From: Candidatus Latescibacterota bacterium
GTDB lineage: Bacteria; Latescibacterota; UBA2968
DNA: 64,000 bases
Direction: 5' to 3'
Assembly (NCBI GenBank): GCA_965204375.1
Contig: OZ241986.1
Span: 896,001-960,000, forward strand
A model generated the notes under the pieces. The model was not told the DNA's origin, searched no databases, and was given only the letters and a program-made list of their open reading frames with translations. Positions 10,187-64,000 of the stretch are shown one piece after another (position 1 is the stretch's first letter; every line of letters starts with the position of its first letter). The position numbers and the translations under genes were made by a program.

Positions 10187-10212
10187 GTTATGCCTATCCG
10201 TTTAATGATTTA

Positions 10213-11574: not shown

Positions 11575-11687
11575 GTGTGAGATAATTCCCAAATGATAGC
11601 CTGTAATGTAAACCCCACAATATAATAACCAAATAGAATTATGGAATCAAGTAACCACTTACTTATTTATCCGCACTTGGAGCGGTT

Positions 11688-12776: not shown

Positions 12777-12809
12777 GGGGAATCTCCTGTAACAAATGCT
12801 GATCGGTTG

Positions 12810-13631: not shown

Positions 13632-13639
13632 AGCGGCTT

Positions 13640-15748
13640 TTACCTCCCTTTGATCAGCACGGTGTCCATTGCCGGGACATCGATTGATCTGCCCGTCAGT
13701 TCCACGGACCTGGATACGGGTGTGAAGTTCGCAACGGCGATCACATCGCTGGTTCGGGACCGAAAGCGATAGGCTCTGACTCCGTCCTGGGCTGTTTGCA
13801 GTCTCTCCACGCCATGGCCTGTGCGGCGCGTTCCGGCACGACCCTGGCGTATGACACACGCGTAGTCACGGACGGTGCCACCGTTCACTCCGGGACGCAG
13901 GAATACGCGGTCCTGGAGTAGATTCCTCCACCGCTCAGGCGTATTTCTCTCCGAGGCATCTTCATACAGAAGTTGCTCGCCGGATGTCTCGATCCCCAGA
14001 CATCCCGCGATCTTGATCCAGGTTGATTCCGTTTCGATCACCCGTGCTCGTCCGCCGACGCCTCGTATGGTGCGCCGACTTCCTTCGAAGGAGACCGAGA
14101 CCCGGTTACCGTTCACAAAGTCGTTCATGATATAGACGCCAAATCCCTCGTTCAGGGAGAGCGCGACATCCGCGACGGTCCAGTCTATCACGAGCGAAGT
14201 TTCCCCGTCTTCGAGCGCGGCGACGGCGATAGATTGTCGAATTCGCCCGTCTGCGTATTCGATCATGCCCGTGGTCGTGAAGCCTTTCTCCGATGTGTGA
14301 TCGGTGTGGAAGAGCGGCGTGGGCTTCAGGCGCTCGCCGTTGATTTCGAAACGTCCAATGAAGGCGTCCTCGTCCGATCCCAGCGTGTCTTCTCCGCCGG
14401 CTGGCACGACCATTCCCATTACGCTGTGTGATAGGGATCGCCAGGCGAATGAGAACAGGCCCTGCTTGCTGCGGCGAACCTGTAGCCATACATAGGGATA
14501 GGCATCGGTTCCGATCTGCTCGCGTCTGAATTCCTCAACGGATATCGGCGAGATATCGGGTACGCCGGCAATCACGAGGGCGGCAAGGTGCCCCATGATG
14601 CCCGTTTCGAACTGGAAGTAGCGACCGCCAGCCGCGTGTGGCATTCGGGCGTTGAATCGGCCGTCTCCTGCGTCCCGCATTGACTCGTCCAGATATACGA
14701 GGTTCTGCCACAACATATGGCCTGCAAATCGGTCGCCGAATTCCTCGAACATGACGGCGTGTTGGTAGCTGATGTCGGGTTCGTGGTAGGTCCAGTCCTG
14801 TCCGGATGGGTAGGCCGTAAATCCGTTGTAGAGGAAGAAACGCCTGAGCACTTTCCAGGCATCGTGGACGCGGTGCAGGTAGTGGGGGGGAGGTGTCTTG
14901 CCCGTCAGTGTGAAGGCGAGGCGCCCCGTCATCAGGAGGACACCACAGCCGAGGTACCCCGGGTGGAAGGAGCCGTGGTTCTCCACGGTGAGGTCGGGGT
15001 GGGACGTTTGCGTGCAGATCCAGTCTTTCAGCGGGCGACCGTCGAAGAGCCGCGTATCGACCCGATCGAGGTCTGTGGTGAAGGTGTTGATGGCAAATAG
15101 CTTGCCTCGATACAGCCATTCGTCCGCGTGAGGGTGGTCGGGGAGGAGACAATGCGCCCAGGCGAGAAGATAGCTGTCCCACGCATTTTCCTCCTCCTTT
15201 GTGTCGTGCCAGCGGCCATCCGGGGGATCGACCCCGAGGAATCGGTCCGCTTCGAAGGCGAGTACGCGATGCACGGCTTCGAGTACGTCCGGTGCCAGTT
15301 CGTTCGCAACGTGGTTGGCTGCCATTGCGATGTCCGCGATCCAGAGGGACGATTCCCAATCGTCGCCCCATTGGCCATTCCATTCGAATGGCTCCGTTCT
15401 TCGCGGTCCGCTCAGGTGGTGTGCGCAGATCCAGCGGAGACACCGGTTTAATCGGTCGAGCAGGACGGGTTTTTCCATTCCGGCGAGTGTCGGATCGAAG
15501 AATGCACTTTGATGGAGGGCCGCGTAGCCTCGAAGTTCATCGCCCAGAGATCGGATGATCATTTCGTTGATCGGTCCGCCCGGGGGTTGAAACTCGTTCA
15601 CATCGAGGGTTCCGAAGTAGCCATGCGCGTCATCATCATCGACCCAGTACTGCTCGATGTAGGGAATGTGCCTGCACATCAGGTGAACGAGGTCGGCCTC
15701 GGATGGAAAAGTCGGTGCGTTCGTGTCGAGTGGGGGGTAGTCGATCAT
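13640..15748 (-). CDS. Hypothetical protein with helical N-part and beta-rich C-part (polysaccharide lyase-like architecture)
   Basis: Long ORF; DTKEEENAW, ENHGSFHPGY and YPSGQDW motifs; start overlaps the upstream stop (ATGA). Confidence 0.55.
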   Translation of the reverse strand: MIDYPPLDTNAPTFPSEADLVHLMCRHIPYIEQYWVDDDDAHGYFGTLDVNEFQPPGGPINEMIIRSLGDELRGYAALHQSAFFDPTLAGMEKPVLLDRLNRCLRWICAHHLSGPRRTEPFEWNGQWGDDWESSLWIADIAMAANHVANELAPDVLEAVHRVLAFEADRFLGVDPPDGRWHDTKEEENAWDSYLLAWAHCLLPDHPHADEWLYRGKLFAINTFTTDLDRVDTRLFDGRPLKDWICTQTSHPDLTVENHGSFHPGYLGCGVLLMTGRLAFTLTGKTPPPHYLHRVHDAWKVLRRFFLYNGFTAYPSGQDWTYHEPDISYQHAVMFEEFGDRFAGHMLWQNLVYLDESMRDAGDGRFNARMPHAAGGRYFQFETGIMGHLAALVIAGVPDISPISVEEFRREQIGTDAYPYVWLQVRRSKQGLFSFAWRSLSHSVMGMVVPAGGEDTLGSDEDAFIGRFEINGERLKPTPLFHTDHTSEKGFTTTGMIEYADGRIRQSIAVAALEDGETSLVIDWTVADVALSLNEGFGVYIMNDFVNGNRVSVSFEGSRRTIRGVGGRARVIETESTWIKIAGCLGIETSGEQLLYEDASERNTPERWRNLLQDRVFLRPGVNGGTVRDYACVIRQGRAGTRRTGHGVERLQTAQDGVRAYRFRSRTSDVIAVANFTPVSRSVELTGRSIDVPAMDTVLIKGR

Positions 15749-15984
15749 GCGGACGCTCCCGGCTCTACAGTTTCGTGTGGTTCGTCGCATCGGAAAACGA
15801 CGAGTTTGCCGCCGTCGATGCGGTTTTTCACGTCTCGCACGAATTCACGGGCGAGATTGGTATCGTAGAGTACCAGAGCGCCCGGTGACTGTGTGTGTGT
15901 GCGGAGTCGCTCTGATTTTTCGCTCCAGGTCGATTGAAGCGCGTCGGATGCATCTCCTTCTGCGATAAGTATGACGTATGCCAT
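15745..15984 (-). CDS. Small hypothetical protein (79 aa)
   Basis: GGGAGGG RBS before MAYVILIAEG; stop coupled to the next ATG. Confidence 0.45.
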   Translation of the reverse strand: MAYVILIAEGDASDALQSTWSEKSERLRTHTQSPGALVLYDTNLAREFVRDVKNRIDGGKLVVFRCDEPHETVEPGASA

Positions 15985-15999
15985 GAGGTCCCTCCCTTT

Positions 16000-16286
16000 T
16001 GTCGGCATGCTTCGAGTTGCGCAGGCTGATCGATGATCTCCTCGGCGATCGGATCGGGAAACCGATTCTCGGCTGTCGGTGTTCCCTCTTGCCATCGGCG
16101 TTCCGTTCTGACGAAGATATCGCTGCCCTGGTACCGGACCTCGTGGGGAACTGTCACGCGTTCGAAGATGCGGTCGGACCATGTCTTGAGCCTGTCCAGC
16201 AGATCCTTATCCATGACACCAGGTACGATGGTGTAGCTCGACTCGACCAACTCCCGCCGCTTTGTCAGCGACTGCTCTCTCGTCAT
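16000..16286 (-). pseudogene. 5' fragment of a PhyH-like dioxygenase
   Basis: RRELVESSYTIVPGVMDKDLLDRL resembles a PhyH N-terminus; the frame runs into the next gene's RBS before any HxD motif. Confidence 0.55.
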
Positions 16287-16466
16287 GTCTCAATCCTTTC
16301 GGTTATCAGGGATATTATACCTAATTATGCGAGCTTTTGTTCAAAAAATACGTCGGTTGCATGATGAATCAAAAACATGGCAGCAGGCTCGTTAAAAGTC
16401 AGTTGGTAGTCAACGCCATCGAGCGTATCTTCAATGAGCCGTCTTCGGCCATTGAGGAGGTCAACT

Positions 16467-18320
16467 ATGGTAGCGGATACAGAACTCCGCAAACAGCACC
16501 AGCGTGGTGCGATCCTTCGAGATCGTATGCGGAAGGCATTTGATATGGCGTACGACACGGACGCTGCGCTGATCGTCCGCAGGAACCCGTTCTTTCCCCG
16601 TTTCAACGGCCACACCGTCGCCCAGCAATCCCTGGACTACGCCATCCTCCTGCTTCTGTCCGATGACCGCACCTACGGGACGGACGATGCCGGTGAGGCC
16701 AACCGAATCATTCGCCGAATCCTAAATCACCAGGACCTGCGACCGAAGTCCGAGACCTTCGGCAATTTCTTCTGGATGACCCACTGGGACCGGGTCAAAG
16801 ACAAGAACGCCGTCTCCTTCCTCACGATCGGCCTGGTCTTCACGTACGTCAACTTCCAGGACAAGTTGGAGGATGACACGAAGGCTGCGCTCGAACGCGC
16901 CTTTCCAAACGTGTTGCTCGGCATCCGTGACCACAAAGTCCGATGGCAGTACACCAACATCTACTTTCTCAACCTCGGCGGCCTGGCCGGTCTTGCCCGT
17001 GTGCTGGACGATCCATCGATCCACGCCGAAGCGGTGGCCGACTTCAACACCTGGGTCGAAGGCACTTCGGAAGACGGCTTCCACGAATTCAACAGCCCGA
17101 CGTACACACCCGTCACGCTCTCAGGTATGGAAGCGGCGTGGGCGTACACGTCAGATGACGAGTTCAAAGACAGACTGCGGCGCACCATGGATTTAATCAC
17201 CTATCAGATGGCGCTCAATCTGATGCCCGGTGGATTTCTGGCGGGTGCTGCCGCAAGGGCTTACCAGGGAGATGTGCTGAATGGTTCAATCGGGGCTGCT
17301 TCGTATGCCCACATTAAATTCGGCACCCCTGCTCCGGCCGAGCCTGCGGTCCTGATGCCGAGCCTGTTCGACTACGTATCGCCGGAATCTGTTCGGTCTC
17401 TGGCGAACGAGATGGCGGATGGAGCCGAAATACTCGATCGGGGAATCTCGCTGGGTAGTCGACGAACCCACGTCATTACGCGGGCTTACGGGCTGGCATC
17501 TCAGAGTTTACAATCTGTGGGCGGCCACTCGCCTCCATCGTATATCCTGCTGGTCCGGAACAGCAAGGCCCCGAGACCCAGTGTCCCGTTCCTTCCGGAC
17601 GAATCCTTTACGCATCAGCCGTGTGCCACATTCCTGTCGCGTCAGAACGGCAGTCAGGTGATCGGCAGACTGTACTACGATCTGCAGGAGGAGCAACGAA
17701 GCAAGTTTCTGGACGATCCTACGTTCATTTGTGAACCTCGCGTCCTGTTCGGGCTGAGGGACCAGATCGAGTCCGTTCGCATCGGCAATGTGGATTGGGG
17801 CGGAAAACCCGTGAGCCTTTTGCCAGGGCAATCCGTGGCTGTTTCCTATGGAGACATCTACCTGGGTGTTGTCGTCCTGCTGATAGACTGCGACGGTCAA
17901 GCGATTCGTAGCCGTGCGATGCTGGCCTATGGCGAAGATGGTGAACTGCGCCTGCGAGTCAGACTCCATGGGGGAGAGGATGTGCAGCAGGAAGATAACC
18001 CACTCGTCGCTCTGCTCTACGTCGATGTTCAGGTTCCCGAGGAGAGACATCCGTTCGAGACATTTGCCAACCAGTTGTTGGGCTGGCAGCTTTCCGACCA
18101 GAGCGACGGAGAGACGGTCTCCTTCTTGGCCGAGCACGAAGATGGCGCAACCATCGCCTATCCCTACACAGAGGCGGATCCGGATCCGATGGGCGATGTT
18201 CTGCACCTATCGCCCGGGCTTGCGCTCCAGCCGGGAGACTTTGTCAAGCTGGTGAACGGGGAGAAGCCTTTGCTCTTCGACTCTGCACAGCAAAACCGGC
18301 TTCTTCGAGAAGGTGTATGA
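16467..18320 (+). CDS. Hypothetical protein (helical toroid-like N-terminus)
   Basis: GAGGAGG RBS before MVADTEL; GFHEFNSPTY motif; 3' end overlaps the convergent gene by 77 nt. Confidence 0.6.
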   Translation: MVADTELRKQHQRGAILRDRMRKAFDMAYDTDAALIVRRNPFFPRFNGHTVAQQSLDYAILLLLSDDRTYGTDDAGEANRIIRRILNHQDLRPKSETFGNFFWMTHWDRVKDKNAVSFLTIGLVFTYVNFQDKLEDDTKAALERAFPNVLLGIRDHKVRWQYTNIYFLNLGGLAGLARVLDDPSIHAEAVADFNTWVEGTSEDGFHEFNSPTYTPVTLSGMEAAWAYTSDDEFKDRLRRTMDLITYQMALNLMPGGFLAGAAARAYQGDVLNGSIGAASYAHIKFGTPAPAEPAVLMPSLFDYVSPESVRSLANEMADGAEILDRGISLGSRRTHVITRAYGLASQSLQSVGGHSPPSYILLVRNSKAPRPSVPFLPDESFTHQPCATFLSRQNGSQVIGRLYYDLQEEQRSKFLDDPTFICEPRVLFGLRDQIESVRIGNVDWGGKPVSLLPGQSVAVSYGDIYLGVVVLLIDCDGQAIRSRAMLAYGEDGELRLRVRLHGGEDVQQEDNPLVALLYVDVQVPEERHPFETFANQLLGWQLSDQSDGETVSFLAEHEDGATIAYPYTEADPDPMGDVLHLSPGLALQPGDFVKLVNGEKPLLFDSAQQNRLLREGV

Positions 18321-51795: not shown

Positions 51796-53406
51796 TCATT
51801 CCCCCGTAACATTCGGGATGAGTGCCGACAGGCCCAGATTTGTTAGCCGCTCGATTTCTTCCCGGAGTTCGTCGCCCGCCAGCGGACCCGCGTAGGGGGC
51901 CTGCTCGAAGCGACATGGAGACTCCACCAGGCGGGGATCGTCGTTCTCCCGCAGGAGACCCATGAGTTCGTTCGCCAGGTCTTTGCGGGCCTGATCGTAG
52001 TCCGGGTCTGTGGCGACATTGTTCATGTAGTGGGGATCGACCCGAAGGTCGTAGAGTTCCTCTCGAGGACGCTTACCGAAGCCGATCTCAAAGAGGGGCT
52101 GTACCTCTTCGTCGGCGCGATGGTGAATCATCCAGGCCTTGGTTGGACCCCCATCCATGTCGGAATACGCCGGGCGCGAGCTGGCCATGAGACTGTCCCA
52201 GGACGGCGCCTCCGCATTGGGGTCGTCAAGCCCTCGCGGGTCTCCCACGGGCCAACGATCAGGCTCGAAGTTGTGGATGTAGAGAAAGTCCCTGGTGCGG
52301 ATCGCACGCATCGGATAGGGCATGCCATCTCTTGCCATGACATTGTGGCGCTCTCGGCCCGTCACGACGGCCGTGCGCTCTGCTTCTACCTGTCCACTCC
52401 TATCGCTTTCGAGCACAGGTAGAAGGCTGCGAGCCGTCATGCTGTCTGGGATGTCAACGCCGGCGGCGTCGAGGAAAGTGGGTGCCAGATCCATCAGGTT
52501 GACGAAGTCATCGACGACGCGGGCGGAAGGGATGCGTTCTGGCCACCGGGCGGCCAGCGCCACTTCGCAGCCAATGTTGTAAAGGTTGCACTTGGCGCGC
52601 GGGAAGCCCGGAATGCCGTGGTCGCCGCTGACGACGATGAGTGTATTGTCCAGCTCGCCGCTGGCCTCGAGGCGCTCGATCAGGACGCCCAGACCAGCAT
52701 CTACCGCCAGACACTCACCCAGGTAATCGTTCACGTCTTCACGGATGTCGTGGACGTCGGGGAGGAAGGCCGGAAGGCGACCTTTCAGGTCGTCGGATTC
52801 CAGCCCCCATAGCGCCTTGCCAGAGCCGCGCTCCCAGGTTCGGTGAGTGTTGGTTGGACCCCACCAGTAGCAGAAAGGCTTTCCCGCGGGCCTCGCCTCC
52901 AGGAAGGCGTCGAAGTTCTGCCGCGTCTCTTCGATGAGCATTTCTTTGGCTCCGTCGATCCCGAGTTCAGAAGCCCGTTTGGTCGCGACGTGGGAGAAGC
53001 GGTTGTACAGCCTGCCAGCAGATTCGTACCGCGTACGCTCTGCGCCGTAGGGGGCGTTCATGGTCCTTCCAGGAGACCACACTTTGTACGTGTACCCGAT
53101 GTGGTAGCCATTTTCCTCGAGAATGAGGGGATAGGTCGGAATGGTCTCGTCCCACACAGCGCCCTGCAGGATGGCGCCGAGGCCCGTCTGCCAGAAGTAC
53201 TGCCCCGAGAGGATGGAACTCCGGCAGGGCGTGCAACTGGGCGCCGGGACAAAGGCGTTTCGGAAGAGCACACCTTCCTCGGCAATCCGGTCGAAATTTG
53301 GGGTGTCAATGAGTGCGTTAATCGCGTTTTCGCCCTCGAACGGACGGTATGCGCTGGCATAACGCCCCCAGTCGTCCGCAAAGGCAAAGAGTATGTTGGG
53401 GGGCAT
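51796..53406 (-). CDS. Sulfatase (N-sulfoglucosamine sulfohydrolase-like)
   Basis: FADDWG, CTPCR, GDHGIPGFPRAKCNLY, GRERH and EELYDL motifs. Confidence 0.92.
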   Translation of the reverse strand: MPPNILFAFADDWGRYASAYRPFEGENAINALIDTPNFDRIAEEGVLFRNAFVPAPSCTPCRSSILSGQYFWQTGLGAILQGAVWDETIPTYPLILEENGYHIGYTYKVWSPGRTMNAPYGAERTRYESAGRLYNRFSHVATKRASELGIDGAKEMLIEETRQNFDAFLEARPAGKPFCYWWGPTNTHRTWERGSGKALWGLESDDLKGRLPAFLPDVHDIREDVNDYLGECLAVDAGLGVLIERLEASGELDNTLIVVSGDHGIPGFPRAKCNLYNIGCEVALAARWPERIPSARVVDDFVNLMDLAPTFLDAAGVDIPDSMTARSLLPVLESDRSGQVEAERTAVVTGRERHNVMARDGMPYPMRAIRTRDFLYIHNFEPDRWPVGDPRGLDDPNAEAPSWDSLMASSRPAYSDMDGGPTKAWMIHHRADEEVQPLFEIGFGKRPREELYDLRVDPHYMNNVATDPDYDQARKDLANELMGLLRENDDPRLVESPCRFEQAPYAGPLAGDELREEIERLTNLGLSALIPNVTGE

Positions 53407-53448
53407 CGCATTCTCCATTCAACAATTTTTGAAATCTATACTTCGCGT

Positions 53449-54798
53449 TTACACTTGTTTTCTGCGAAATGCGTGGGGATTGACGATTTCATATCCCCAT
53501 CGATCCAACAATTCCTGCCCAGTCTCAAACGCGTCGTTCTGTTCCTTCAACAGATCTGAAAGCAAACCTTCCAGATGCGTTTGAACAGATTCTACCTCAG
53601 GCCGACCACAAAGGTTCTCCAACTGATAAGGATCTGCCTCATTGTCATACAACAACCAGGGCCCCTCCAGGTCACGCACATAAGTATAACGGCTCGTGCG
53701 AACGCCTCGATATTCTCTGCCACCATGTTCATAAGAATAATTGGCAAACGGCACGTAGCATCCAAAAAGTGAAGCTTCAAAAGGCGCATCGGCTTCACCG
53801 AGCATGTGTTTGGCAAAACTCACCCCTTCGACACCGTCCGGCACAGGTGCGCCTACCAGATCCAGCATGGTTGGCATCATATCCGGTATCCCAAAAGGTG
53901 TGTCGATTTGGCGACCCGTGCCATCTGGCAAACGCAACAGAAAGGGCACAAGAATGGATTCATCCCAGGGCCGTATTTTCCGATCATGGCCTTGTGACCC
54001 ATTCATTTCACCGTGATCAGACGTAAACACAAGAATCGTATCCTCTGTCATCCCGAGGCGTTCAAGTGCTTCTTCAACACGCCCAACACAGTGATCAAGT
54101 GCCGTAATATGCGCATAATAACCCCACATGTCATTCCGGGCAGTCGCTTCACTCTCAGCAGGCACATTGTCTCTCAATACGATTTCATCTTCATTGTAGA
54201 GCGCTCTGTATTCTTCCGGCACTTTGTGGAAAGGGTTATGAGGCGGGCCATATGAAACAAAAAGGAAAAAGGGATCGTCTTCATCCTGCCTGCCCTCCAG
54301 ATACTCAATCGCACAATCTGTCTGTGCAAACGCATCGTATCCTTCCCACTTTTTCATAATGCCCGAATCATCATAATAGGGCGAATCGTAATAATTGTGC
54401 GAGCATTCGTGCGCGCGCCAAAAGTCAAAGCCCAACCGTCGCTCTGGTGGGATGAAATTTTGCTCGTGGGTATCTCCGTCCAAATGCCACTTGCCAATGT
54501 ATGCGGTGTCATAACCGTGTGACTTTAGAACCTCAGCGAATGTGGTCGTATCGGGCTCAAGCCGAATCTGGTTTAAAAAGATCCCATGCGTCAGTGGATA
54601 TTGCCCGGTCAAAAGACAGGCACGAGCCGGACAACAAACCGGGCACGTTGACACAGTCGTATCCAACCGAACACTCTTTTGAGCCAGGGCATCGAGATTG
54701 GGTGTCTTAACATTTGGATCTCCCGTATACCCCGTCGCCTGTGCGCGCCACTGATCGGTCAAAATGAATACAATATTGGGCTTCTCTTTGTTGGCCAC
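53449..54798 (-). CDS. Sulfatase
   Basis: TDQWR, CCPAR, IGKWHLDG, PPHNP and SDHGE motifs; GTG start. Confidence 0.93.
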   Translation of the reverse strand: MANKEKPNIVFILTDQWRAQATGYTGDPNVKTPNLDALAQKSVRLDTTVSTCPVCCPARACLLTGQYPLTHGIFLNQIRLEPDTTTFAEVLKSHGYDTAYIGKWHLDGDTHEQNFIPPERRLGFDFWRAHECSHNYYDSPYYDDSGIMKKWEGYDAFAQTDCAIEYLEGRQDEDDPFFLFVSYGPPHNPFHKVPEEYRALYNEDEIVLRDNVPAESEATARNDMWGYYAHITALDHCVGRVEEALERLGMTEDTILVFTSDHGEMNGSQGHDRKIRPWDESILVPFLLRLPDGTGRQIDTPFGIPDMMPTMLDLVGAPVPDGVEGVSFAKHMLGEADAPFEASLFGCYVPFANYSYEHGGREYRGVRTSRYTYVRDLEGPWLLYDNEADPYQLENLCGRPEVESVQTHLEGLLSDLLKEQNDAFETGQELLDRWGYEIVNPHAFRRKQV

Positions 54799-54866
54799 AA
54801 AAAACTCCTCAGATTACTTCACGCTAATAAACGAATCACAGAAATATCAAAAAGATTTGATTCCTT

Positions 54867-55721
54867 CTAAACAACCGGTCTGATCTCTGGGGCACCGTTC
54901 TCTTCGCACCACGGCGTAAGTGGGCTATCTCCACCACCAGCTTTGTACCCCTCTATCTTTGGATATCTTTCACCTACCAAATACCGACCCAATTCATCCA
55001 GTTTATCCATAAAGGCAGGCTCCTGGCTTCGATAGTCCAGCGGCATAACCCAACGATAGCCATAACCAATCATGATCGCCTTTCGGATGTTACCCGATGT
55101 GTTTATCCCCGCCGCATGACCGGTTCGATTTTCAAAGAATAGGCAATCACCCGCCTTTAAAGAAGCTTCAACATAACCTTTTGGTCCAAGCTCTCCTTCA
55201 GGGACTTCAATGGGGTTGCTGTGGCGATTGGAGCCAGGCGCAATGAGTGTCATTCCCGAGTTTGGTTCGGTCAGATCATTGAGATAAAACGCGCACTTTA
55301 ACAAAACACGGGGCACATGATTTCCCAATACTTTTGTCGCTGCACCATAATCGCGATGCCATCCGACCCGCCGAATTTTCTTCGAGAGATCAGAAGAGTT
55401 TCTGTAAGCAAGTTGTGAGACCATCAGTTGGATGTGTGCACCCAAAAGCTGTACTGCAACCGACAGCGATTTGGCGTGGGTTAGCAGTGGAATAAAAGCA
55501 TCATCTTTCACAATACAATTCTTAAAGCCCAGTCGTCCCGTGCGCATGTGTTGGTCGTCACTCGCAATCAACCGATCAGCAGCCTCAACGACCCGGTCAA
55601 TCATGTCCTGATCGAGCACGTCGCGCACGATGAGATAGCCTTGCTCATCAAACTGCCTGATTTCTTGTTCTGAAAGCGCATGCCAGTCCAGATCAATCGA
55701 CGATTCTGTCATCTGAGCCAT
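54867..55721 (-). CDS. PhyH-like Fe/2OG oxygenase
   Basis: FDEQGYLIVRDVL, GWHRD, SGMTLIAPGS and GDCLFFENRTGHAAGIN motifs. Confidence 0.87.
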   Translation of the reverse strand: MAQMTESSIDLDWHALSEQEIRQFDEQGYLIVRDVLDQDMIDRVVEAADRLIASDDQHMRTGRLGFKNCIVKDDAFIPLLTHAKSLSVAVQLLGAHIQLMVSQLAYRNSSDLSKKIRRVGWHRDYGAATKVLGNHVPRVLLKCAFYLNDLTEPNSGMTLIAPGSNRHSNPIEVPEGELGPKGYVEASLKAGDCLFFENRTGHAAGINTSGNIRKAIMIGYGYRWVMPLDYRSQEPAFMDKLDELGRYLVGERYPKIEGYKAGGGDSPLTPWCEENGAPEIRPVV

Positions 55722-55757
55722 TGTTTGCTCTCCTTTCGTTTGAGCCATCGGGGGATT

Positions 55758-57185
55758 CTAAACACTCGGCAAAGGCACAGTATCTCCTGTTTCATGTTGC
55801 CACAATCGAATCTTCGCCGCCATATCGCGAATGCGATCGCGATGTTCAGGAACATCAAACAGATTGTTTTCTTCATAAGGATCTGTATTAAGGTCGAACA
55901 ACTCACACTGATCACCTGCACACAAATTCAACTTCCAGAGATCACCCGTCACCACAGACCGCCAGGGCAATGTCGCCATCAAGTTAATGCTTGGATTCCC
56001 TAAATTGCGATCGCCAATCCCATTCCACTCCATAAATGCAACGTGATCCTTCAAATCGCGCTCACCGGTGAGTGCACCAGCCAAACTTTCCCCTTCACAC
56101 TGATCTGAAACTTCAACGCCCGCCAGATCCAAAAGTGTCGGCACCAAATCCGCATGCCCAAACACACCATCGATTCGTTTCTGTTCCTCATTCAACCACG
56201 GCACACTGAGCAAAAACGGCACTCGCGCAGACTCTTCGTAAAACGTCCGTTTTTCCAGCATCGCATGATCGCCCACCATTTCCCCATGATCACTCGTGTA
56301 AGCAATAATCGTATTCTCCAGTTGCCTTGTATCTTCCAATGCCTGAATGATCCGCCCCACAGCATCATCCACAATCTTCATATTTCCGAAGTATTGCGAT
56401 CTCACTTTCCGCCATCCCAATTCCGTACTTAAATCTTCACCTGCCTCTATCTTTGTTGCATAATGCTCTGCTCGCACCCGATTAAATCGCGAATGCCCTT
56501 CAGGCTGTTTCAAAAACGTCGGGCCAACTGGCAATTCCTCAGGATCATACAATCCGTCATACGGCCCTGTATATGGAGGGTGCGGTTCAAACGTACTGCA
56601 CACCAGCAACCAGGGCTGATCGACATTTTCTCGAATAAACCGATCCGCTTCCTGCGCGACAAACGCCCCGACCTGTTGTTCCGCTGGCAAACGTGCGCGA
56701 TCTCCTGCAGAAAATTGTTTCAAGTCCGGTGCCAAATGCGAGGGTGGTTCAACGCCCTGTGCCACCAACCACTCATAGTGGGAACTCATCGGCGCATCTT
56801 GAATCGTATTCAAATGCCGCAAATTATCCTGAATACTGATCCACTCATCAAACCCATGTTGGCGAACGGTATCGTTGCCCAAATGCCATTTGCCCATATA
56901 TGCTTTGCGATATGTATCTGGCATCATTTCCGCAATCGACTTTGTATCTTCCCGTAGATGAATCCCATTCACCACACATCCGTGCGAATGAGGGTACAGT
57001 CCAGACATCAACGTACCCCGCGACGGCGTACACACAGCCTGACCAACATACGTATTCTCAAAAACAAAAGACCGCTCCGAAAGCGCATTCAAATGCGGCG
57101 ATTGAATCCAATCATTGCCGTAACACGACATGGTATCTGTGCGTTGCTGATCTGTGAACACAAAAAGGATATTCGGTTGATTCAT
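55758..57185 (-). CDS. Sulfatase
   Basis: TDQQR, CTPSR, MGKWHLG, EPHPPY and SDHGE motifs. Confidence 0.93.
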   Translation of the reverse strand: MNQPNILFVFTDQQRTDTMSCYGNDWIQSPHLNALSERSFVFENTYVGQAVCTPSRGTLMSGLYPHSHGCVVNGIHLREDTKSIAEMMPDTYRKAYMGKWHLGNDTVRQHGFDEWISIQDNLRHLNTIQDAPMSSHYEWLVAQGVEPPSHLAPDLKQFSAGDRARLPAEQQVGAFVAQEADRFIRENVDQPWLLVCSTFEPHPPYTGPYDGLYDPEELPVGPTFLKQPEGHSRFNRVRAEHYATKIEAGEDLSTELGWRKVRSQYFGNMKIVDDAVGRIIQALEDTRQLENTIIAYTSDHGEMVGDHAMLEKRTFYEESARVPFLLSVPWLNEEQKRIDGVFGHADLVPTLLDLAGVEVSDQCEGESLAGALTGERDLKDHVAFMEWNGIGDRNLGNPSINLMATLPWRSVVTGDLWKLNLCAGDQCELFDLNTDPYEENNLFDVPEHRDRIRDMAAKIRLWQHETGDTVPLPSV

Positions 57186-57187
57186 AT

Positions 57188-59185
57188 CTATTCCTCAAAC
57201 CCAGAGGACAGTTCAATTCTCTTCATCACCCGCTCCAATACCCACACCCTGACGATGCCATCTCGCTGCCCACCAAGCCCGCTTGTGTAATTGTTCTTTT
57301 TGAGCTGCGTATTGTGTTCTGGCCCGCACATCTCCTGTTTGTTTATGGCCTGCTCCAGGGCGGAAATAAGCGATGCCATAGGCTGCAATTCTTCGCGGCT
57401 ACGGTATGACAGATAAGCGCCGGCCCGTAGCCGCGCCCAGAGGATATCGCTCGCCAGCGCCCGTTCAAAAGCAGGCAGAGCCAGGGCGCCTTCGCCTGCC
57501 CGCACCAGATAGTCTCCGGCGGCCAGGCTGACGCTGATTGAGGGATCGTCAAGGAGGGGGGAGAGCCGCTCGGTCATCGCGCGTTCCACACCAAGCGAGC
57601 AAAGGCCGGTAACAGCCCAGAAACGCACGGCGCTGTCGGGATCACCAAGTCGTTTTACGAGTTCTTCCTTTGCTTCTTCGCCCATGCGCGCCAGGTCCGC
57701 TGTTTCCAGGATCCGCTCATAATTATCACAGTGAGTACCGACTGCGTGGCTGATGCCGTTGTACTGCTCGGCTCGCGCGGCAATCTCCGGTTCATCGATC
57801 AGCCCCAGATCGCGGGTCTCGATCATCCAGCCAAACAGCTTCTGTCGCAGTTCCTTTTTGACGTCGCTGAAAGCGGGATCTTCTGCCAGGTTATGCACCT
57901 GTTCAGGATCCTTTTCGATGTCGTATAACTCTTCGGCCGGTTTGTGATCCTGCCAGATATGAAACTGCTGGTAATGCTCAGGTAGCCCGTCCTGTTTGAT
58001 CATGACCGGTGGACCGAGCATCAGAAACACGCCGTCGGGGTCGTGGACCTTCTGTTTGCCCGGCAGGCAAGAGGTCTCCCAGAAGGCTCGCTCCGGCGTT
58101 CCCTCTTCTGGGACGGGCGCGAAGAACCCGCCGTCTGGATAGAACGAAGCATAAGGCTGGTGGGGGAGGAAGTTACGCATGTAACGGTATTTTTTGGTGC
58201 GGATCGTGCGGATCACCTCCGGGTTGTTGTCCAGCCGATCTCTGGCACTGCAGACGAACTCTCTCGGTTCATCTCTGTTGGGACCGCACAGGTTTCGACT
58301 CTGTATATGATCGGCGAGCGGAATGCCTGCCAGCTGCAGGGTCGTCGCACACAGGTCCATGTGCAAGACGGGTTCATCAATCGCGGTGCCGGGGTCTGCC
58401 GGGGATAGGTGCCGGTACTTCTCCGGGAATCGCATAATCAGCGGAATACTCAATCCGTCGTCGTATGCATGGATCTTGCCCCGGGGATAACCCGTGCCGT
58501 GGTCTCCCCAATAGACCACAATAGTGTCTTCACTGTGCCCCTGCTCTTCAAGCTGGTTCAGGATCTCCCCGACCTGCTTATCGACATTTGTAAGGGCATC
58601 GTAGAAAAGTGCCATCCGTTCCCTGAACAGGGGCGTGTCGGGAACAAAGCTCGGAACCGGCACATCATTCGGATCGTGCAACTCGTCGTCGCTCAAGAGC
58701 GCGGAACGCGCTTTCCGTGCATCCTCGGGCGTCAGTTTGAATACGCTGGCGTGGGAACTGCCCAGTCTGTAATACATGAAAAACGGCTTGTCTTCAGGGC
58801 GATTCTCCCAAAAATCTTCAGAATTGTAATACTGTTCACGCTCATCTTTGGAGACGTATAGATTGATGTCATTGTCCGGCTGCGTGCAGGCATAACCGGC
58901 GTTTGTCAGCATTGTGTTTAACAGTTCAACCCCTGCGGGGCGGATGACCGCGCTACGGTGATGATGCGTGCCCAGCGTGGTCGGATGCATGCCGGTATAG
59001 ATGCCCGTGCGCGATGGTGAGCAGATTGGGCCAGCGGTGAACGCGTTGGTGTAGCGCACACCTTCTGCCGATAGGCGGTCAATATTCGGGGTATGCGCGT
59101 ATTGATCGCCGTAGCAGCCGTAGTTCCAGGCGCTGGAGTCGTGGTTGCTGATCCAGAGGAAATTGGGTCTGTCTTGTTTTTCCAT
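57188..59185 (-). CDS. Sulfatase with C-terminal HEAT-like repeats
   Basis: CSPSR, GDHG..YPRGK and ARDR motifs; C-terminal DPDSAVRFWAV and DDPSISVSLAA repeats. Confidence 0.88.
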   Translation of the reverse strand: MEKQDRPNFLWISNHDSSAWNYGCYGDQYAHTPNIDRLSAEGVRYTNAFTAGPICSPSRTGIYTGMHPTTLGTHHHRSAVIRPAGVELLNTMLTNAGYACTQPDNDINLYVSKDEREQYYNSEDFWENRPEDKPFFMYYRLGSSHASVFKLTPEDARKARSALLSDDELHDPNDVPVPSFVPDTPLFRERMALFYDALTNVDKQVGEILNQLEEQGHSEDTIVVYWGDHGTGYPRGKIHAYDDGLSIPLIMRFPEKYRHLSPADPGTAIDEPVLHMDLCATTLQLAGIPLADHIQSRNLCGPNRDEPREFVCSARDRLDNNPEVIRTIRTKKYRYMRNFLPHQPYASFYPDGGFFAPVPEEGTPERAFWETSCLPGKQKVHDPDGVFLMLGPPVMIKQDGLPEHYQQFHIWQDHKPAEELYDIEKDPEQVHNLAEDPAFSDVKKELRQKLFGWMIETRDLGLIDEPEIAARAEQYNGISHAVGTHCDNYERILETADLARMGEEAKEELVKRLGDPDSAVRFWAVTGLCSLGVERAMTERLSPLLDDPSISVSLAAGDYLVRAGEGALALPAFERALASDILWARLRAGAYLSYRSREELQPMASLISALEQAINKQEMCGPEHNTQLKKNNYTSGLGGQRDGIVRVWVLERVMKRIELSSGFEE

Positions 59186-59330: not shown

Positions 59331-60227
59331 TCAGATGACTTCGTCGCCTGCCTGAGTAAGCCGGATCATGGGAAGGTCTTCATGGCGGTTTTTTTCTGGC
59401 GGATGGATGAGTTCTTCGAGGCGTTTTTTGGTGGCCAGAAATTGGGGTGTGAGGAATTGGTCTGGATTGCGGGGGCGGGGCACGGAAACTTCGATAATTT
59501 CCTGGATGTGACCGGGGTGGGTACCTAAAACTACGATGCGGTCAGCCAGATAGACGGCTTCATCCAGGTCGTGGGTGATAAAGAGGATGGTGATATCTAC
59601 GTTGCGCCAGATTTGGAGCAAGTAGGTCTGCATCTGGCTTCTGGTTTGGGCATCAAGGGCACCAAAGGGTTCGTCCATGAGCAGGATACGGGGGCGGTTG
59701 GCCAGGGCGCGTGCGATGGCCACGCGTTGTTTCATGCCACCTGAAAGTTCGTGTGGATAAGCGTTGGCAAAATTGCTCAGGCCCACAAGGTCGATCCACT
59801 GGAGTGCCTGTTCTTCGGCATAATTGTTGCCGTGGTTAGTCATTTTGAGGCCGAACATGATATTCTTTTTTATGGTCAGCCAGGGAAAGAGCGTGTAACC
59901 TTGAAAGACCATGCCGCGATCAGGGGACGGACCTTTCACTTCTTGATTGTCCAAGAGGACCTGGCCGGAGGTGGGATAGTCCAGGCCAGCCAGGATGCGG
60001 ATGAGGGTGGATTTACCACAGCCGGAGGCGCCGATGACACAGATAAATTCACGCCGGTGTATGTTGAACAGGATGTCGTGGAGGGCGACGATGTCGCCGT
60101 CGGCCCCCGGAAAGATTTTGCCGAGGTGCTGGACTTTCAGGACAACGGGGCGCTGGCGAATTTTTTCAAATCGGGCTTTAACGTCCGGTTCCTGTTCCAG
60201 GTAGCTCGGTAAATTCAGGTTGTTCAT
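59331..60227 (-). CDS. NitT/TauT-family ABC transporter ATP-binding protein
   Basis: [33 protein letters not shown] and FITHD motifs. Confidence 0.95.
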
Positions 60228-60297
60228 GGTTGGGTTTTTCTGTCTGAGAGGTTGATTTTTTGAAGACTTTGAAAGTTCGGTTCAGCCGCAGGCGTCC

Positions 60298-61257
60298 TCA
60301 GTTGCGGCGTTCCCAGGGGAAGAGGTAGTGACCGATGAAGCGCAGGATCTGATCGGTGGTAAGGCCGATAATGCCGATCATGACAATGGCCGCAAAGACG
60401 TTATCGTAATTGCGGTATTTGGCCTGCTGATTGATAAACCACGAAATGCCCGAAGACGCGCCGATGAGTTCGGCAACAATGAGGTAGGTCCAGGCCCAGC
60501 CCAGGAGAATGCGCATGTCGCGGTAGAGGTTGGGCAAGATGCCGGGTACAATGACGTGGAAGATCAGTTTTTTTGAGGTCGCGCCCAGAGTCTGGGCGGC
60601 TTCAAGTAGGGATTTGTCCAGCAACCGCGTGGTGTTGCCGACCACGAGCACCATCTGAAAGAAGGTGCCGATAAAGATAATGGCCACTTTGGGCGCATCG
60701 GCGATGCCTAAAAAGGCGACCATGAGGGCACCAAAAGCCGGGGCGGGCATGTAGCGGATGAAGTCGATAAAGGGCTCGATAATGCGTGTGAAAAAGGCAA
60801 AGGTGCCACATAGAATACCGAGGGGCACGCCGAGGATGGCGGACAGGGTGAATCCGTAGAAGATGACGGTGATGCTGTGCAGAATGCTTTGGTGTAGCCA
60901 GGGATCATTGCGCCGGATGGGGGCGGTTTGAAAGGCTGTGATAAAAGCCTGGACGACCTGATGCGGGGCTGGCAAGTAAATGGGGTTAGCCAGCTCGCCC
61001 CGCGCTTCTGATTCGCCTTCTTCGCGCATGAACGCATTTTCTTTGTTGAATATCTCCCGGTCAACCAGCATGTCTTTTTGAAAGTAGGCCACCCCTCCCG
61101 GATCGCTGATGAGCACCATCGGATGCCAGATCCAGGGCGTGTAACTCACCAGGCTCCAGATACCTAGCGGCAACAAAAAGGAGCACAGACCCAAAAGCCA
61201 ACTCCTCTGACCAGACAGATCTTTGCGAATCGCAAACCAGTGTTTTCTCACATTCAT
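60298..61257 (-). CDS. NitT/TauT-family ABC transporter permease
   Basis: YLPAP, FIRYMPAPAF, EAAQTLGA and WTYLIVAEL motifs. Confidence 0.92.
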   Translation of the reverse strand: MNVRKHWFAIRKDLSGQRSWLLGLCSFLLPLGIWSLVSYTPWIWHPMVLISDPGGVAYFQKDMLVDREIFNKENAFMREEGESEARGELANPIYLPAPHQVVQAFITAFQTAPIRRNDPWLHQSILHSITVIFYGFTLSAILGVPLGILCGTFAFFTRIIEPFIDFIRYMPAPAFGALMVAFLGIADAPKVAIIFIGTFFQMVLVVGNTTRLLDKSLLEAAQTLGATSKKLIFHVIVPGILPNLYRDMRILLGWAWTYLIVAELIGASSGISWFINQQAKYRNYDNVFAAIVMIGIIGLTTDQILRFIGHYLFPWERRN

Positions 61258-61333
61258 AAAAAGCTCTGATTAAATAAACGACAACGGAGACAAATATTTC
61301 TCTCGTCATGGGAGAAGGGTGTTTAAGGGCCTC

Positions 61334-63190
61334 CTAAGCAAATTTCATTTTTAAAGCGTCGTCGATCTCGTTTTCACAAGCCATGGCCGGAAGCCCCAGT
61401 TCGCGTTCGACCACATCAAAGAAGGCACTTTTTCGAACATTCTGACCCTGAAGGCGGCTGGCCAGTACATCGGCCCCGGGCAGGCCGTGGCTGAGGGTGA
61501 TCAGGCCGGGATTGGGGATCAGGTCATAGTGCCCCCAGCGGCTTCGGTAAAGGCCCTGACGGTTCCAGCGGATGGCTACGTTAAGGGCTTCAACCAGGCC
61601 GAAGGGATTGAAGAGGGTGCTGTAAATTTTGGCCATTTCACAACACACACGGGCAAAATAGGTGATATTAGGACCGTGCCAGGCTGCTCTTAAAGGGGCG
61701 GGTATGAGGCCGAAGCAATTGGAGATGGACAGGCGTGTGTGACCTTTGAACCGGGCGAAGGAGATGAAATCATTACTGGCGTAGTCGAGTAAGAGTTTTG
61801 GTATAAATCGGCAGAGTTCGGGGTGATAGGATTTGTGTCCGGCCTCTTCGAGGTGCCCAGCTATGTCGGAGGGATTGGCACATTGGCCGTCCCAATAGGC
61901 CTCGGTGACGTTGAGATAGTGGGCATTGTGGTGGTCAATAACGTCCTGGAGGCCAGTGCGTTTGAGGTATTCTTGATCTTGATCGCGAATCCAGGTGCGA
62001 TGGGCTTTGCTTTCCGTTTTCCAGTCCCAGGAGGTTCCGCCCAGATTTCGTCCTACAGTATGGCCTTCTAAGATTACGGCCCGACCGGGCAGAGCCGACA
62101 GAAGTTTGTCGAGGGCAATGGGGTCGGTGTAGGTACCGGTGGCATATCCATGCCAGGTGACTTTGACGAAGGCGGGGTCTGAGGTGATGCCAAAACTTTG
62201 AAAGAGGCGGGATAAAGCGTCAGTGTCGTGGATTTCGGCGATGGTGGCACCCTGATAGGTGTGCGTGTGGGGCACGGGGCCTTCGATATCTCGGATTGGC
62301 AAAGTGCCGTCGGGACCGTGGATACAACTTACAGGTTGGGCGTTTTTGTTGTGCTTGGGCGAAGGGGTGCGTTTTGCAGTTTTTTCGCGGTGGGCGTTCC
62401 ATAGAGCGGACAAACGCTGTTGCATCCATGCTGAGAGGTGTGCTGTGAGGCCCAGTGAATTGCAGAGAATCCAGGTGTCGGCGAGGGGATGCTTTTTGCA
62501 GAAATCTTTGTAGATAATCCGGGTATATTCTGCATGGTCGTCTTCAAATAGGAGATAGGGGGCCAGGATCCAGCGATACGGTGTTTGCGCCGCACAGGCA
62601 AGTTGCTCGGGCAGGGGTGTTTTTTCGTGGCGTAAGAATGCCACGTCCGCTTGTGCCAGACTCAAGTGTTCCCAGAGCAAGCGCATCAATTGATAGGATT
62701 TTGCACGGCCTACCGGATCGCCGTGTCCACTGGCGACGAGCATCAGGGCGGTGTTTTGAGGCAATGTGTTGGTGTGGTGCAGGCGGGTGCAGATGTGATC
62801 GACAAAGGCCTGGATCAACAAGGGATGGCAGGGGTCTGGATCGTCGTAGAAGATATTCATATCCGGATGGTCCCTGCGGGTCTGATTGATGGTTTCTATA
62901 AAGATGGTTTTCTGATCGATGCTGAAGTCCAGCAAGAGGGGCAGTATAAAGACAGCACTGGCACCGTCTTGATGGCAGGCCTGGAGATGTTCGGGCAGAT
63001 CGCCTCCGGTCCATTGCCCGGCGGGAGGTAGAGACGCACAGGTAATAGAAGGGGTAAATCCCAGGATTGGAGCGCATGTTTCGCTCAGAGCCTGGCAGAG
63101 GGCTTGGGGCTCGTTCAGACGGTTCGAGCAGGTGTCGGTCAGGAGGACAAACACAGGAGGCCCCCTATGTGTGTGGTTACTGGATGCCAC
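61334..63190 (-). CDS. CbiX/SirB chelatase-like tandem domains fused to a DUF362-like domain
   Basis: VFILPLLL, HPLL, LMLVASG, VAFL and LAPYLLF (CbiX-like); FVKV..TDP..LEG..FISFARFK..LSISNCFGLIP..HG (DUF362-like). Confidence 0.6.
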   Translation of the reverse strand: MASSNHTHRGPPVFVLLTDTCSNRLNEPQALCQALSETCAPILGFTPSITCASLPPAGQWTGGDLPEHLQACHQDGASAVFILPLLLDFSIDQKTIFIETINQTRRDHPDMNIFYDDPDPCHPLLIQAFVDHICTRLHHTNTLPQNTALMLVASGHGDPVGRAKSYQLMRLLWEHLSLAQADVAFLRHEKTPLPEQLACAAQTPYRWILAPYLLFEDDHAEYTRIIYKDFCKKHPLADTWILCNSLGLTAHLSAWMQQRLSALWNAHREKTAKRTPSPKHNKNAQPVSCIHGPDGTLPIRDIEGPVPHTHTYQGATIAEIHDTDALSRLFQSFGITSDPAFVKVTWHGYATGTYTDPIALDKLLSALPGRAVILEGHTVGRNLGGTSWDWKTESKAHRTWIRDQDQEYLKRTGLQDVIDHHNAHYLNVTEAYWDGQCANPSDIAGHLEEAGHKSYHPELCRFIPKLLLDYASNDFISFARFKGHTRLSISNCFGLIPAPLRAAWHGPNITYFARVCCEMAKIYSTLFNPFGLVEALNVAIRWNRQGLYRSRWGHYDLIPNPGLITLSHGLPGADVLASRLQGQNVRKSAFFDVVERELGLPAMACENEIDDALKMKFA

Positions 63191-63196
63191 GGGGCT

Positions 63197-64000
63197 TTAT
63201 TCCGATTCGAGTTTGCCGCCAATCCGGTCGTATTTTACCAGGGTGGCCAGGGTGTCCATCATGGCGCGAACGCCCAACAGGGCCGTAATGTCGGAGATGT
63301 CGTAGGGCGGAGCGACTTCGACAACTTCCATGGCGGCGATGCCTTCTTTGGCAATACCACGGAGCAGGGATAGGGCTTCTCTGGGTAGATATCCGCCGGG
63401 CTCTGGCCAGCCTGTGCCGGGTACAAAACCGGCATCTACGGAGTCGATGTCGAAGGAGAGATATACAGCACTGGCACCTTTCCAGGCCACTTCGAGGGCG
63501 ATTTCGAGGGTTTTGTCAATACCGAGGGTTTCGACATCGTCGATGGTGAGCACGGTTGAGCGCATGGTGCGGCCGTGGCGCACCCCCGTTCTGGGTACCT
63601 GCCAGCCACCAATGCCCAATTGGACCAGATTGGTGGGGGGGCAGTTGGGGATATTGGTGGCATGGAACCAGGGACAGGTGTGCATGATTTCGTCCATGTC
63701 TTTTTCCTGGGTGTCCACATGGCGGTCCAGATGGATGATGCCGACTTTGCCTTCGACGCATTCGGCCACGCCGCGCACACAGGGATAACCGATGGAGTGG
63801 TCGCCCCCCATGATCATGGGCAAAGCCCCGCTGGAAAGGATATGGGCAACGCCTTTGGTAATTTGGTCGTGCCCTTTGGTGATATTGGCGGGACAGAAAA
63901 TATCTCCGATGTCACACATTTTGAGAGATTCGCGCAGGTCAATGCCGAGTTCAAAATTATAGGGGGTGTACAGGGAAGATATCCGGCGCATGCCCTGTGG
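63197..64000 (-). CDS. gdmH: Ureohydrolase, guanidine hydrolase (GdmH)-like; 5' end lies outside the window
   Basis: GGDHSIG, DRHVDTQE, MHTCPWFHATN, GIGGWQVPR and SFDIDS..GTGWPEPGG closely match my recollection of cyanobacterial GdmH (Sll1077). Confidence 0.75.
   Translation of the reverse strand, partial: PQGMRRISSLYTPYNFELGIDLRESLKMCDIGDIFCPANITKGHDQITKGVAHILSSGALPMIMGGDHSIGYPCVRGVAECVEGKVGIIHLDRHVDTQEKDMDEIMHTCPWFHATNIPNCPPTNLVQLGIGGWQVPRTGVRHGRTMRSTVLTIDDVETLGIDKTLEIALEVAWKGASAVYLSFDIDSVDAGFVPGTGWPEPGGYLPREALSLLRGIAKEGIAAMEVVEVAPPYDISDITALLGVRAMMDTLATLVKYDRIGGKLESE

Follow-up and report, generated by a model that had tools for sequence, protein, structure and literature searches.

A chelatase-like/DUF362 fusion protein encoded next to the guanidine hydrolase gene gdmH in Latescibacterota and other bacteria, a candidate nickel-insertion or maturation factor

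The stretch considered here comprises 64,000 nucleotides (nt) of a Latescibacterota genome (contig OZ241986.1, G000:C1:896001-960000, hereafter the window) and lies within the single 6.34-Mb contig of a 96 % complete genome. Near its end an operon encodes an orthologue of the nickel-dependent guanidine hydrolase GdmH together with a fusion protein of 618 amino acids (aa), which is the subject of this analysis. Four genes are found on the reverse strand, i.e. gdmH at 63197–64000, where it runs off the window, the fusion gene with its GTG start at 61334–63190, the gene of a 319 aa NitT/TauT-type ATP-binding cassette (ABC) transporter permease at 60298–61257, and that of a 298 aa ABC transporter ATPase at 59331–60227, with a gap of 6 nt (63191–63196) between the stop of the ureohydrolase and the start of the fusion. 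This layout had been proposed by an earlier reading of the sequence alone (the sequence-only reading) and was borne out by the open reading frames (ORFs) and by the Pfam families Arginase (PF00491, E 1.3e-62), BPD_transp_1 (E 4.1e-25) and ABC_tran (E 2.5e-33). Only the 3′ two-thirds of gdmH are inside the window; the gene extends to window-equivalent position 64354 and encodes 385 aa from the ATG that matches the N-terminus common to its relatives (complete ORF at L003 4197–5414).

The sequence-only reading had also advised looking upstream for a binding protein, and the gene of a lipoprotein-like, NMT1/SsuA-type binding protein of 326 aa was indeed found just past the window (window-equivalent 64425–65405), around 70 nt upstream of gdmH. 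The operon thus reads binding protein, gdmH, fusion, permease and ATPase, and all three parts of a NitT/TauT-type importer stand beside gdmH as in a GimABC-like system, transport itself being predicted. In NCBIfam, the permease matched TauC, SaoP and SsuC best, the ATPase the ntrCD subfamily (E 6.9e-76) and the binding protein TIGR03427/SsuA-like, each below the respective equivalog cut-off. No hypA or hypB was detected by Pfam or NCBIfam among the operon proteins, in line with the claim that none lies between gdmH and the transporter genes. The genes farther upstream of the binding-protein gene, a 475 aa ORF without an NCBIfam family followed by large ORFs, are unrelated, and none of them is hypA or hypB.

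Nickel-dependent ureohydrolases, i.e. the guanidine, dimethylguanidine and metformin hydrolases, have been discovered only recently. The hydrolase of the window matches the solved GdmH chains 7esr/7oi1 with E 1.8e-146 and 9fek with E 2.8e-147, whereas guanidinobutyrase, the next family (E 9.1e-51), and the agmatinases score worse by around a hundred orders of magnitude. Both motifs pointed out earlier, HTCPWFH and GTGWPEPGG, are in its translation, and the metal-site motifs of the arginase family, GGDHS, DRHVD and SFDIDSVD, are all there and do not vary among its relatives. We therefore accept the hydrolase as a GdmH orthologue, with nickel dependence and guanidine as substrate being predicted. 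Plain guanidine is also pointed to by the binding protein, which shares 54 % identity with a protein from a metagenome locus whose gene immediately follows a guanidine-I riboswitch.

The AlphaFold model of the fusion protein (predicted local distance difference test score, pLDDT, 86.8) shows two domains. The N-terminal domain (residues 1–282, positions 62345–63190, reverse strand) has the complete two-lobed fold of the class II chelatases of the SirB/CbiX type: the best Foldseek match is Bacillus SirB (PDB 5zt9; E 7.4e-11, template modelling score TMt 0.74), the top matches include SirB structures solved with Ni2+, Co2+ or Fe3+, and the Pfam family CbiX (PF01903) covers the second lobe (residues 157–256; E 1.1e-9, 38.9 bits vs a cut-off of 22) and matches 32 of 34 members of the fusion family. 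At the level of sequence, the similarity to SirB reaches just E 0.054. The class also includes CfbA, which inserts nickel. While profile and fold place the domain in this class, the histidines of the metal/tetrapyrrole site are not conserved. The SirB segment LLLLTAAHAKH, the histidines of which belong to the catalytic residues, aligns with LLLDFSIDQK of the fusion, and column 92 of the family is W, L or F among 127 distinct members. After the first strand, family positions 18 and 19 are T/S and D/E and not H-G-S (LLTD in this copy), so the observation that the canonical N-terminal HGS is lacking was correct. At the pseudo-symmetric positions of the second lobe, histidine is found at H156 in 64 and at H219 in 85 of the 127 sequences. 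Other residues are better kept, i.e. D116, H122, E174, R187 and H188, conserved in 113–126 of the 127, as well as D119. Since the SirB/CbiX histidines are unconserved in the family, metallation of a tetrapyrrole by this domain is unlikely. Compared with SirB, CbiX and CfbA, the fusion thus shares the two-lobed fold and the CbiX match on the second lobe, but lacks the histidines of the SirB segment and the H-G-S, and carries an additional domain of 336 aa. Another protein with a CbiX-like chelatase fold and extra domains of unknown role is DR2241 of Deinococcus radiodurans (PDB 2jh3; Foldseek rank 9, E 1.3e-8), but its overall superposition with the fusion is poor (root mean square deviation, rmsd, 23.7; TMt 0.38) and it is outside the top 50 matches of the C-terminal domain. 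A hidden Markov model (HMM) of the N-terminal domain built from over-extended ORFs gave weak, spurious matches to off-frame translations of gdmH 3′ ends, which were discarded.

The C-terminal domain (residues 283–618 plus stop, positions 61334–62344, reverse strand) had been described as DUF362-like. Its direct match to Pfam DUF362 (PF04015) is weak (E 0.039, 14.4 bits vs a cut-off of 24, with 5 of 34 family members matching at E ≤1), but the assignment was confirmed by other routes. When 1.84 billion representatives were searched with the domain profile, just 235 proteins were found at E ≤0.001, the non-fusion matches being stand-alone proteins of around 300 aa (E 1e-59 to 1e-26), and 17 of the 21 stand-alone relatives tested pass the PF04015 cut-off. 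In a protein-language-model atlas, all 30 of 30 matches were DUF362 clusters, with a top score of 0.95. Modelled alone (pLDDT 92.4; predicted template modelling score, pTM, 0.92), the domain was aligned by VIA-align foremost with five chains of the LarA family (Z 11.1, 10.9, 10.7, 10.5 and 9.6; next match Z 5.5), superposing with an rmsd of 3.6–3.9 Å over 194–212 residues, a range that comprises the LarA N-domain alone. This N-domain (DUF2088) and DUF362 belong to the same Pfam clan, CL0471, as stated in a passage of PMC11770544. Based on the transitive profile search, the atlas and the fold of its clan-mate LarA, the C-terminal part is a divergent DUF362-family domain with the fold of the LarA N-domain. 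Foldseek against the PDB returned nothing at E ≤0.001 for this domain, leaving VIA-align as the one route to the LarA fold, and an hhalign comparison of the domain profile with a LarA homologue encoded in this genome yielded a probability of 0.3 %. Lar_N (PF09861) matches three other genes of the genome but not the fusion, which also has no LarA C-terminal domain.

The C-terminal domain is the most conserved part of the fusion. K343, H347, E375, H377, E430, K482, H505, C516, C517, E534 and D574 are invariant or nearly so, with H347 found in all 127 sequences, the pair C516–C517 in 127 and 125, and H377 in 124. K343, E375, E430, K482, N491, H505, E534 and D574 are common to the fusions and the stand-alone DUF362 relatives. 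Hence, the domain shares fold and core residues with members of clan CL0471, but differs from them in its score below the PF04015 cut-off, in the missing Lar_N match and in H347, C516 and C517, none of which was found in the stand-alone relatives tested, whereas some of these do possess H377. No function for DUF362 turned up in the literature searched.

With the fusion as query, at least 644 proteins were found at E ≤0.001 among 8000 candidates scored. Most of the 120 relatives listed are around 550–670 aa long and cover 86–100 % of the query, and fusions of different phyla are 42–60 % identical over 600 residues. Database names of the relatives are ‘hypothetical’, ‘CbiX/SirB N-terminal domain-containing’ or ‘sirohydrochlorin ferrochelatase’, the last of which we judge to be wrong. 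The fusion had been called His/Cys-rich, and this is true of the present copy (His 5.5 %, Cys 2.8 %) but not of the family, in which the medians are 3.1 % and 1.6 %. NCBIfam holds no family for the fusion, and no P-loop domain was detected in it. No description of the protein or of its link to GdmH was found in the literature searched, although supplementary gene-neighbourhood tables might hold one.

To follow this link, we used a collection of one genome per species (185,579 species), which contains 126 relatives of the fusion, and examined 80 of their loci. Adjacency was counted from BLAST and phmmer matches to all ORFs, as the gene caller had missed some real genes of GC-rich loci in favour of long antisense ORFs. 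In 76 of the 80 loci, a gdmH homologue (58–99 % identical) lies immediately upstream of the fusion on the same strand, and the carriers belong to eight phyla as named in the records, i.e. Latescibacterota, Poribacteria, Myxococcota, Tectimicrobiota/Entotheonella, Acidobacteriota, Binatia, Verrucomicrobiae and Planctomycetota. Each of the four exceptional genomes encodes a 75–80 % identical GdmH elsewhere. Two of these fusions sit at a contig start; one of the gdmH genes stops 92 nt short of the end of its contig, another adjoins a second fusion copy, and two genomes, of Verrucomicrobiae and a Poribacteria metagenome-assembled genome (MAG), keep the two genes truly apart. No fusion-bearing genome without GdmH was found among the 80 loci. 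Start calls being rough, the gap between gdmH and fusion falls between −4 and +30 nt for 50 of the 76 adjacent pairs, and the fusion is probably translationally coupled to gdmH. The carriers include a cultured species, Singulisphaera acidiphila DSM 18658 (L048), in which the fusion again follows gdmH; in the sample of 251 Planctomycetota genomes, just Singulisphaera and G006 encode GdmH. In one Latescibacterota MAG (L007:4708-6372), a 398 aa ORF matching both the binding protein and GdmH is followed by a 141 aa GdmH fragment, frames that were probably fused and split by an assembly frameshift.

A second sample was centred on GdmH itself, i.e. 80 loci from a metagenome scan seeded with hypAB-linked GdmH, of which 69 have at least 400 nt downstream and could be assessed. 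GdmH of the same clade, defined as scoring >650 bits against the GdmH of the window, is followed by the fusion in all 33 assessable cases, so the conservation of the fusion next to gdmH, on which the sequence-only reading depended, is seen in both samples. The remaining assessable loci carry hypA (two, one of them with hypB) or neither partner (34). In a tree of 158 GdmH sequences (FastTree, midpoint-rooted, sequences <330 aa dropped), 104 fusion-linked and 5 unassessable sequences form one main clade with a support of 0.90, the sister of which is hypA-linked (G006 and L097). A second, distant clade (support 0.997) comprises six fusion-linked sequences of Entotheonella, Binatia and relatives; the fusions of these six loci likewise form a monophyletic group in their own tree (support 1.0), and pairwise distances of GdmH and fusion are correlated (r = 0.59; 2556 pairs from 72 loci). 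Given this shared group and the correlated distances, gdmH and the fusion travel and are inherited as a unit, with few independent associations.

Passages of two published accounts (PMC12704784, PMC11399263) describe GdmH, MefH and DmgH as requiring co-encoded HypA/HypB, with HupE nearby. In the genome studied here, hypA and hypB were not found just upstream of the operon, where their presence would have spoken against the sequence-only reading, and a search of the whole genome gave no match to HypA (PF01155). Across the 80 fusion loci, an HMM from five HypA sequences had no match among ORFs ≥70 aa, while it recovers the hypA genes of L097 and L104. PF01155 was absent from 9 of the 16 fusion-bearing genomes searched, the present one included, a count subject to the incompleteness of MAGs; where it is present, it lies outside the fusion locus. 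Four matches to the cobW family were found in this genome, one of them around 2 kb from the urease alpha gene and read as ureG by position only; the other three (frames of 448, 480 and 321 aa) leave a HypB formally possible.

Urease is encoded elsewhere in this genome. Among the 80 fusion loci, 20 contain a ureG homologue and around 21 contain ureC homologues, and the cobW-family genes there score far better as ureG; ureD and the small urease subunits are also among the neighbour families, and HupE/UreJ nickel permease genes are found in four loci. In many of the Bryobacterales loci L022, L026, L029, L033, L035, L039, L057, L060, L061, L063–L066, L070, L074 and L080–L083, urease genes (ureC and ureG, plus ureD and the small subunits where scanned) accompany gdmH and the fusion, mostly just downstream of them. 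Loci with urease, gdmH and fusion would together encode a route from guanidine to ammonia. Since loci that also contain urease accessory genes still retain the fusion, it is specific to GdmH.

Other genes are found in the slot behind gdmH when the fusion is not. G006 encodes HypA (Pfam E 1.2e-30) and HypB (TIGR00073, 248 bits) after gdmH, and L097 and L104 carry hypA, with hypB in one of the two. The G006 locus (L095, G006:C1:1507000-1526999, reverse strand, 9426–17211; Planctomycetota) reads NMT1 binding protein, permease, ATPase, TetR, gdmH, gdmH, hypA and hypB, its tandem GdmH paralogues being 66 % and 62 % identical to the GdmH of the window, an arrangement that resembles the operons of heteromeric dimethylguanidine/metformin hydrolases. 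In 16 metagenome loci (L122, L138, L150, L151, L155, L157, L159, L161–L164, L166, L169, L170, L173 and L174), an ORF of 150–200 aa directly follows gdmH (e.g. L163:7174-7662, forward strand), consisting of an N-terminal tract rich in poly-His/Asp and a conserved C-terminal part of around 100 aa. It has no Pfam or NCBIfam family, the GdmH sequences linked to it form a separate clade of 16 + 2 members, and we regard it as the third candidate for a nickel chaperone of guanidine hydrolase, and an undescribed one. The proposed mutual exclusion of fusion and hypAB therefore stood only in part: the fusion-less loci G006, L097 and L104 do have hypA/hypB, but the sample shows no two-way split, considering the loci with neither partner and those with the poly-His ORF. 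Further neighbours directly behind gdmH are an ECF-type CbiM/PDGLE/CbiQ-CbiO nickel/cobalt transporter (L098:7120-9717, forward strand) and ureD (L143 and L152). A creatininase-family gene follows a GdmH-like gene of a divergent clade in L103 (4399–5223, forward strand) and L107 (3826–4653, forward strand), which hints at a pathway for creatinine or a guanidino compound rather than plain guanidine use.

A guanidine riboswitch, which the sequence-only reading had suggested looking for upstream, was found neither at this locus, where the Rfam scan of L003 1–9000 at E ≤1 gave just two sub-threshold chance matches, nor in any of 21 fusion-type loci (from L008–L083). The guanidine-I riboswitch was found upstream in 7 of 11 GdmH loci without the fusion (L098, L099, L122, L138, L157, L163 and L174), which serve as positive control of the method. 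The fusion-linked clade must thus be regulated in another way. As to expression, the stretch is present in sponge, coral and marine metagenome runs, and contigs from RNA libraries of two studies span the gdmH–fusion junction; in one library, contigs also span the fusion–permease and the binding-protein–gdmH junctions. The part upstream of the binding-protein gene (L003 6319–6552) is uncovered by contigs of RNA-library X16. Considering that DNA carry-over is possible and that a single transcript is not proven, these contigs are weak support for co-expression.

Starting from gene order, folds, conservation and synteny across phyla as observed, we infer that the fusion binds nickel, that it touches GdmH and in which direction the metal passes. 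In the reading that we favour, the locus would be a guanidine uptake and hydrolysis operon and the fusion a dedicated nickel-insertion or maturation factor for GdmH other than HypA/HypB, a reading that we hold to be about as likely as not. A dedicated accessory factor is suggested by the adjacency with its coupling-like spacing, the co-inheritance, the slot shared with two other kinds of nickel factors and the absence of a HypA match from most of the carriers searched, and nickel delivery would fit since both folds come from metal-handling superfamilies, i.e. SirB and the LarA nickel-pincer enzymes. The fusion would take the role of the cyanobacterial GhaA/GhaB: it would take up Ni2+ and load it into the dinuclear site of apo-GdmH, or mature the enzyme in another manner. 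Its degenerate chelatase domain, no longer handling tetrapyrroles, would be a metal-binding or docking module acting via D116, D119, H122, E174 and H188, and the DUF362 domain with the gained H347, C516 and C517 and the invariant H377 may form a second metal or substrate site. Since a search of its sequence revealed no P-loop domain, the fusion would deliver the metal without hydrolysing a nucleoside triphosphate (NTP), unlike HypB or UreG. The most specific form of this proposal, a single-polypeptide, NTP-independent nickel insertase of undescribed kind, in which a chelatase fold minus its porphyrin site and a DUF362 domain with a His/Cys-Cys site load the dinickel centre of GdmH, is tentative, and we hold it to be somewhat less probable than the general one.

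Like GhaA/GhaB and the HypA/HypB of MefH/DmgH, the fusion is encoded beside, and co-inherited with, a nickel-ureohydrolase gene, often with NitT/TauT ABC genes and sometimes with HupE, as far as described in passages of PMC12704784 and PMC11399263, and the sister clade of the fusion-linked GdmH has hypA/hypB in the same slot. It differs from them in being one polypeptide of 618 aa instead of two small proteins, related to them in neither sequence nor fold and possessing neither a zinc ribbon nor a P-loop GTPase domain.

Several points weigh against this reading. There is no direct sign of nickel binding by the fusion, and the case rests on comparative data. The histidines expected of SirB/CbiX are unconserved, a poly-His tract is missing, and the excess of His and Cys belongs to this copy and not to the family. 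The identity among fusions of different phyla is high for a metallochaperone. The DUF362 domain, the best-conserved part, has numerous invariant residues of the types K, R, T, N, E and D and thereby resembles an enzyme or ligand-binding site rather than a chaperone surface, its clan-mate LarA being an enzyme. A partner is not universally needed, given the roughly half of assessable metagenome GdmH loci with neither fusion nor hypA and a comammox guanidinase reported without known chaperones in a passage of PMC11410670, which calls the nickel-loading route in organisms without HypA/HypB unclear. Furthermore, the linkage is structured into two GdmH clades and would thus reflect few independent events, and the missing riboswitch means that the substrate of this GdmH clade could differ. 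A complex prediction of GdmH residues 25–385 with the whole fusion scored 0.00 and, made without control runs, counts neither way.

Some of these points lead to the alternative that the fusion acts as an enzyme within this pathway, with its active site in the DUF362 domain and the chelatase-like domain as a binding or regulatory module, acting on a substituted guanidine, a precursor or a product. The dense invariant polar residues of the C-terminal domain (K343, T345, E375, R381, N427, E430, K482, R486, N491, H505, E534, R549, R551 and D574), many of them common to stand-alone DUF362 proteins, would fit an active site, as would the LarA-family enzymes as nearest solved folds and the high conservation across phyla; the riboswitch found at other GdmH loci but not in fusion operons could indicate another substrate, and the creatininase genes of L103 and L107 show that pathway enzymes can fill the slot. 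Yet the GdmH of the window is about as close to the characterized guanidine hydrolases (E 1e-146) as those of other clades and has the same motifs, its binding protein points to plain guanidine, the hydrolysis of which requires no second enzyme, with urease encoded elsewhere in the genome, and the same slot is filled by nickel factors in other clades. In addition, no substrate can be proposed and no DUF362 activity turned up in the literature searched. We therefore regard an enzyme as the main and a serious alternative, but as a good deal less probable than an accessory factor. The sequence-only reading had left the choice between a metal-delivery or maturation factor and an extra enzyme; the evidence, circumstantial as it is, leans to metal delivery, and no result separates the two.

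Tight one-to-one adjacency, short spacing and co-inheritance would also fit a stable non-catalytic subunit, scaffold or sensor that delivers no metal but stabilizes or regulates GdmH, as the second subunit does in heteromeric MefH/DmgH, and a passage of PMC11399263 describes heteromeric nickel-ureohydrolases that require one of their subunits for assembly only. However, the second subunit of MefH/DmgH is a paralogous ureohydrolase and not an unrelated protein, the solved GdmH homologues are deposited as single-protein entries, and contact between GdmH and the fusion is not supported by any result here, which makes such a subunit improbable. Least probable is that the adjacency is a hitch-hiking legacy of one transferred ancestral operon, with the fusion active in an unrelated process such as tetrapyrrole or cofactor metabolism: the linkage in only two GdmH clades and the ferrochelatase name in some databases would fit, but the linkage was kept across eight phyla while the neighbours changed (to one side or the other ABC genes, elsewhere urease operons or HupE, and in some loci nothing of this kind), two genomes retain both genes though apart, no fusion-bearing genome lacks GdmH among the 80 loci and the chelatase histidines are missing.

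Beyond the operon, its downstream side is occupied by four sulfatase-family genes in a row (540, 449, 475 and 665 aa; window 51796–59185, reverse strand), broken by a 293 aa ORF at 54867–55748. The 665 aa sulfatase has C-terminal HEAT repeats according to Pfam, and the other three were assigned from reading the sequence.

The operon as such is of a known type, and the accessory protein, if confirmed, would be a new solution to a known task. The fusion family is small and unnamed, its link to a single GdmH clade of soil, peat and marine lineages is close to perfect, and the cultured carrier S. acidiphila DSM 18658 makes the proposed role in nickel insertion or maturation readily testable. If it is true, the nickel-ureohydrolases would have recruited at least three unrelated maturation systems, i.e. 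HypA/HypB, a small poly-His protein and the fusion, and a tetrapyrrole chelatase fold would have been re-used for the metallation of a protein. It would also give DUF362-type domains their first function, and a single added gene could suffice to obtain recombinant guanidinases in active form for use in bioremediation or in work on the nitrogen cycle.

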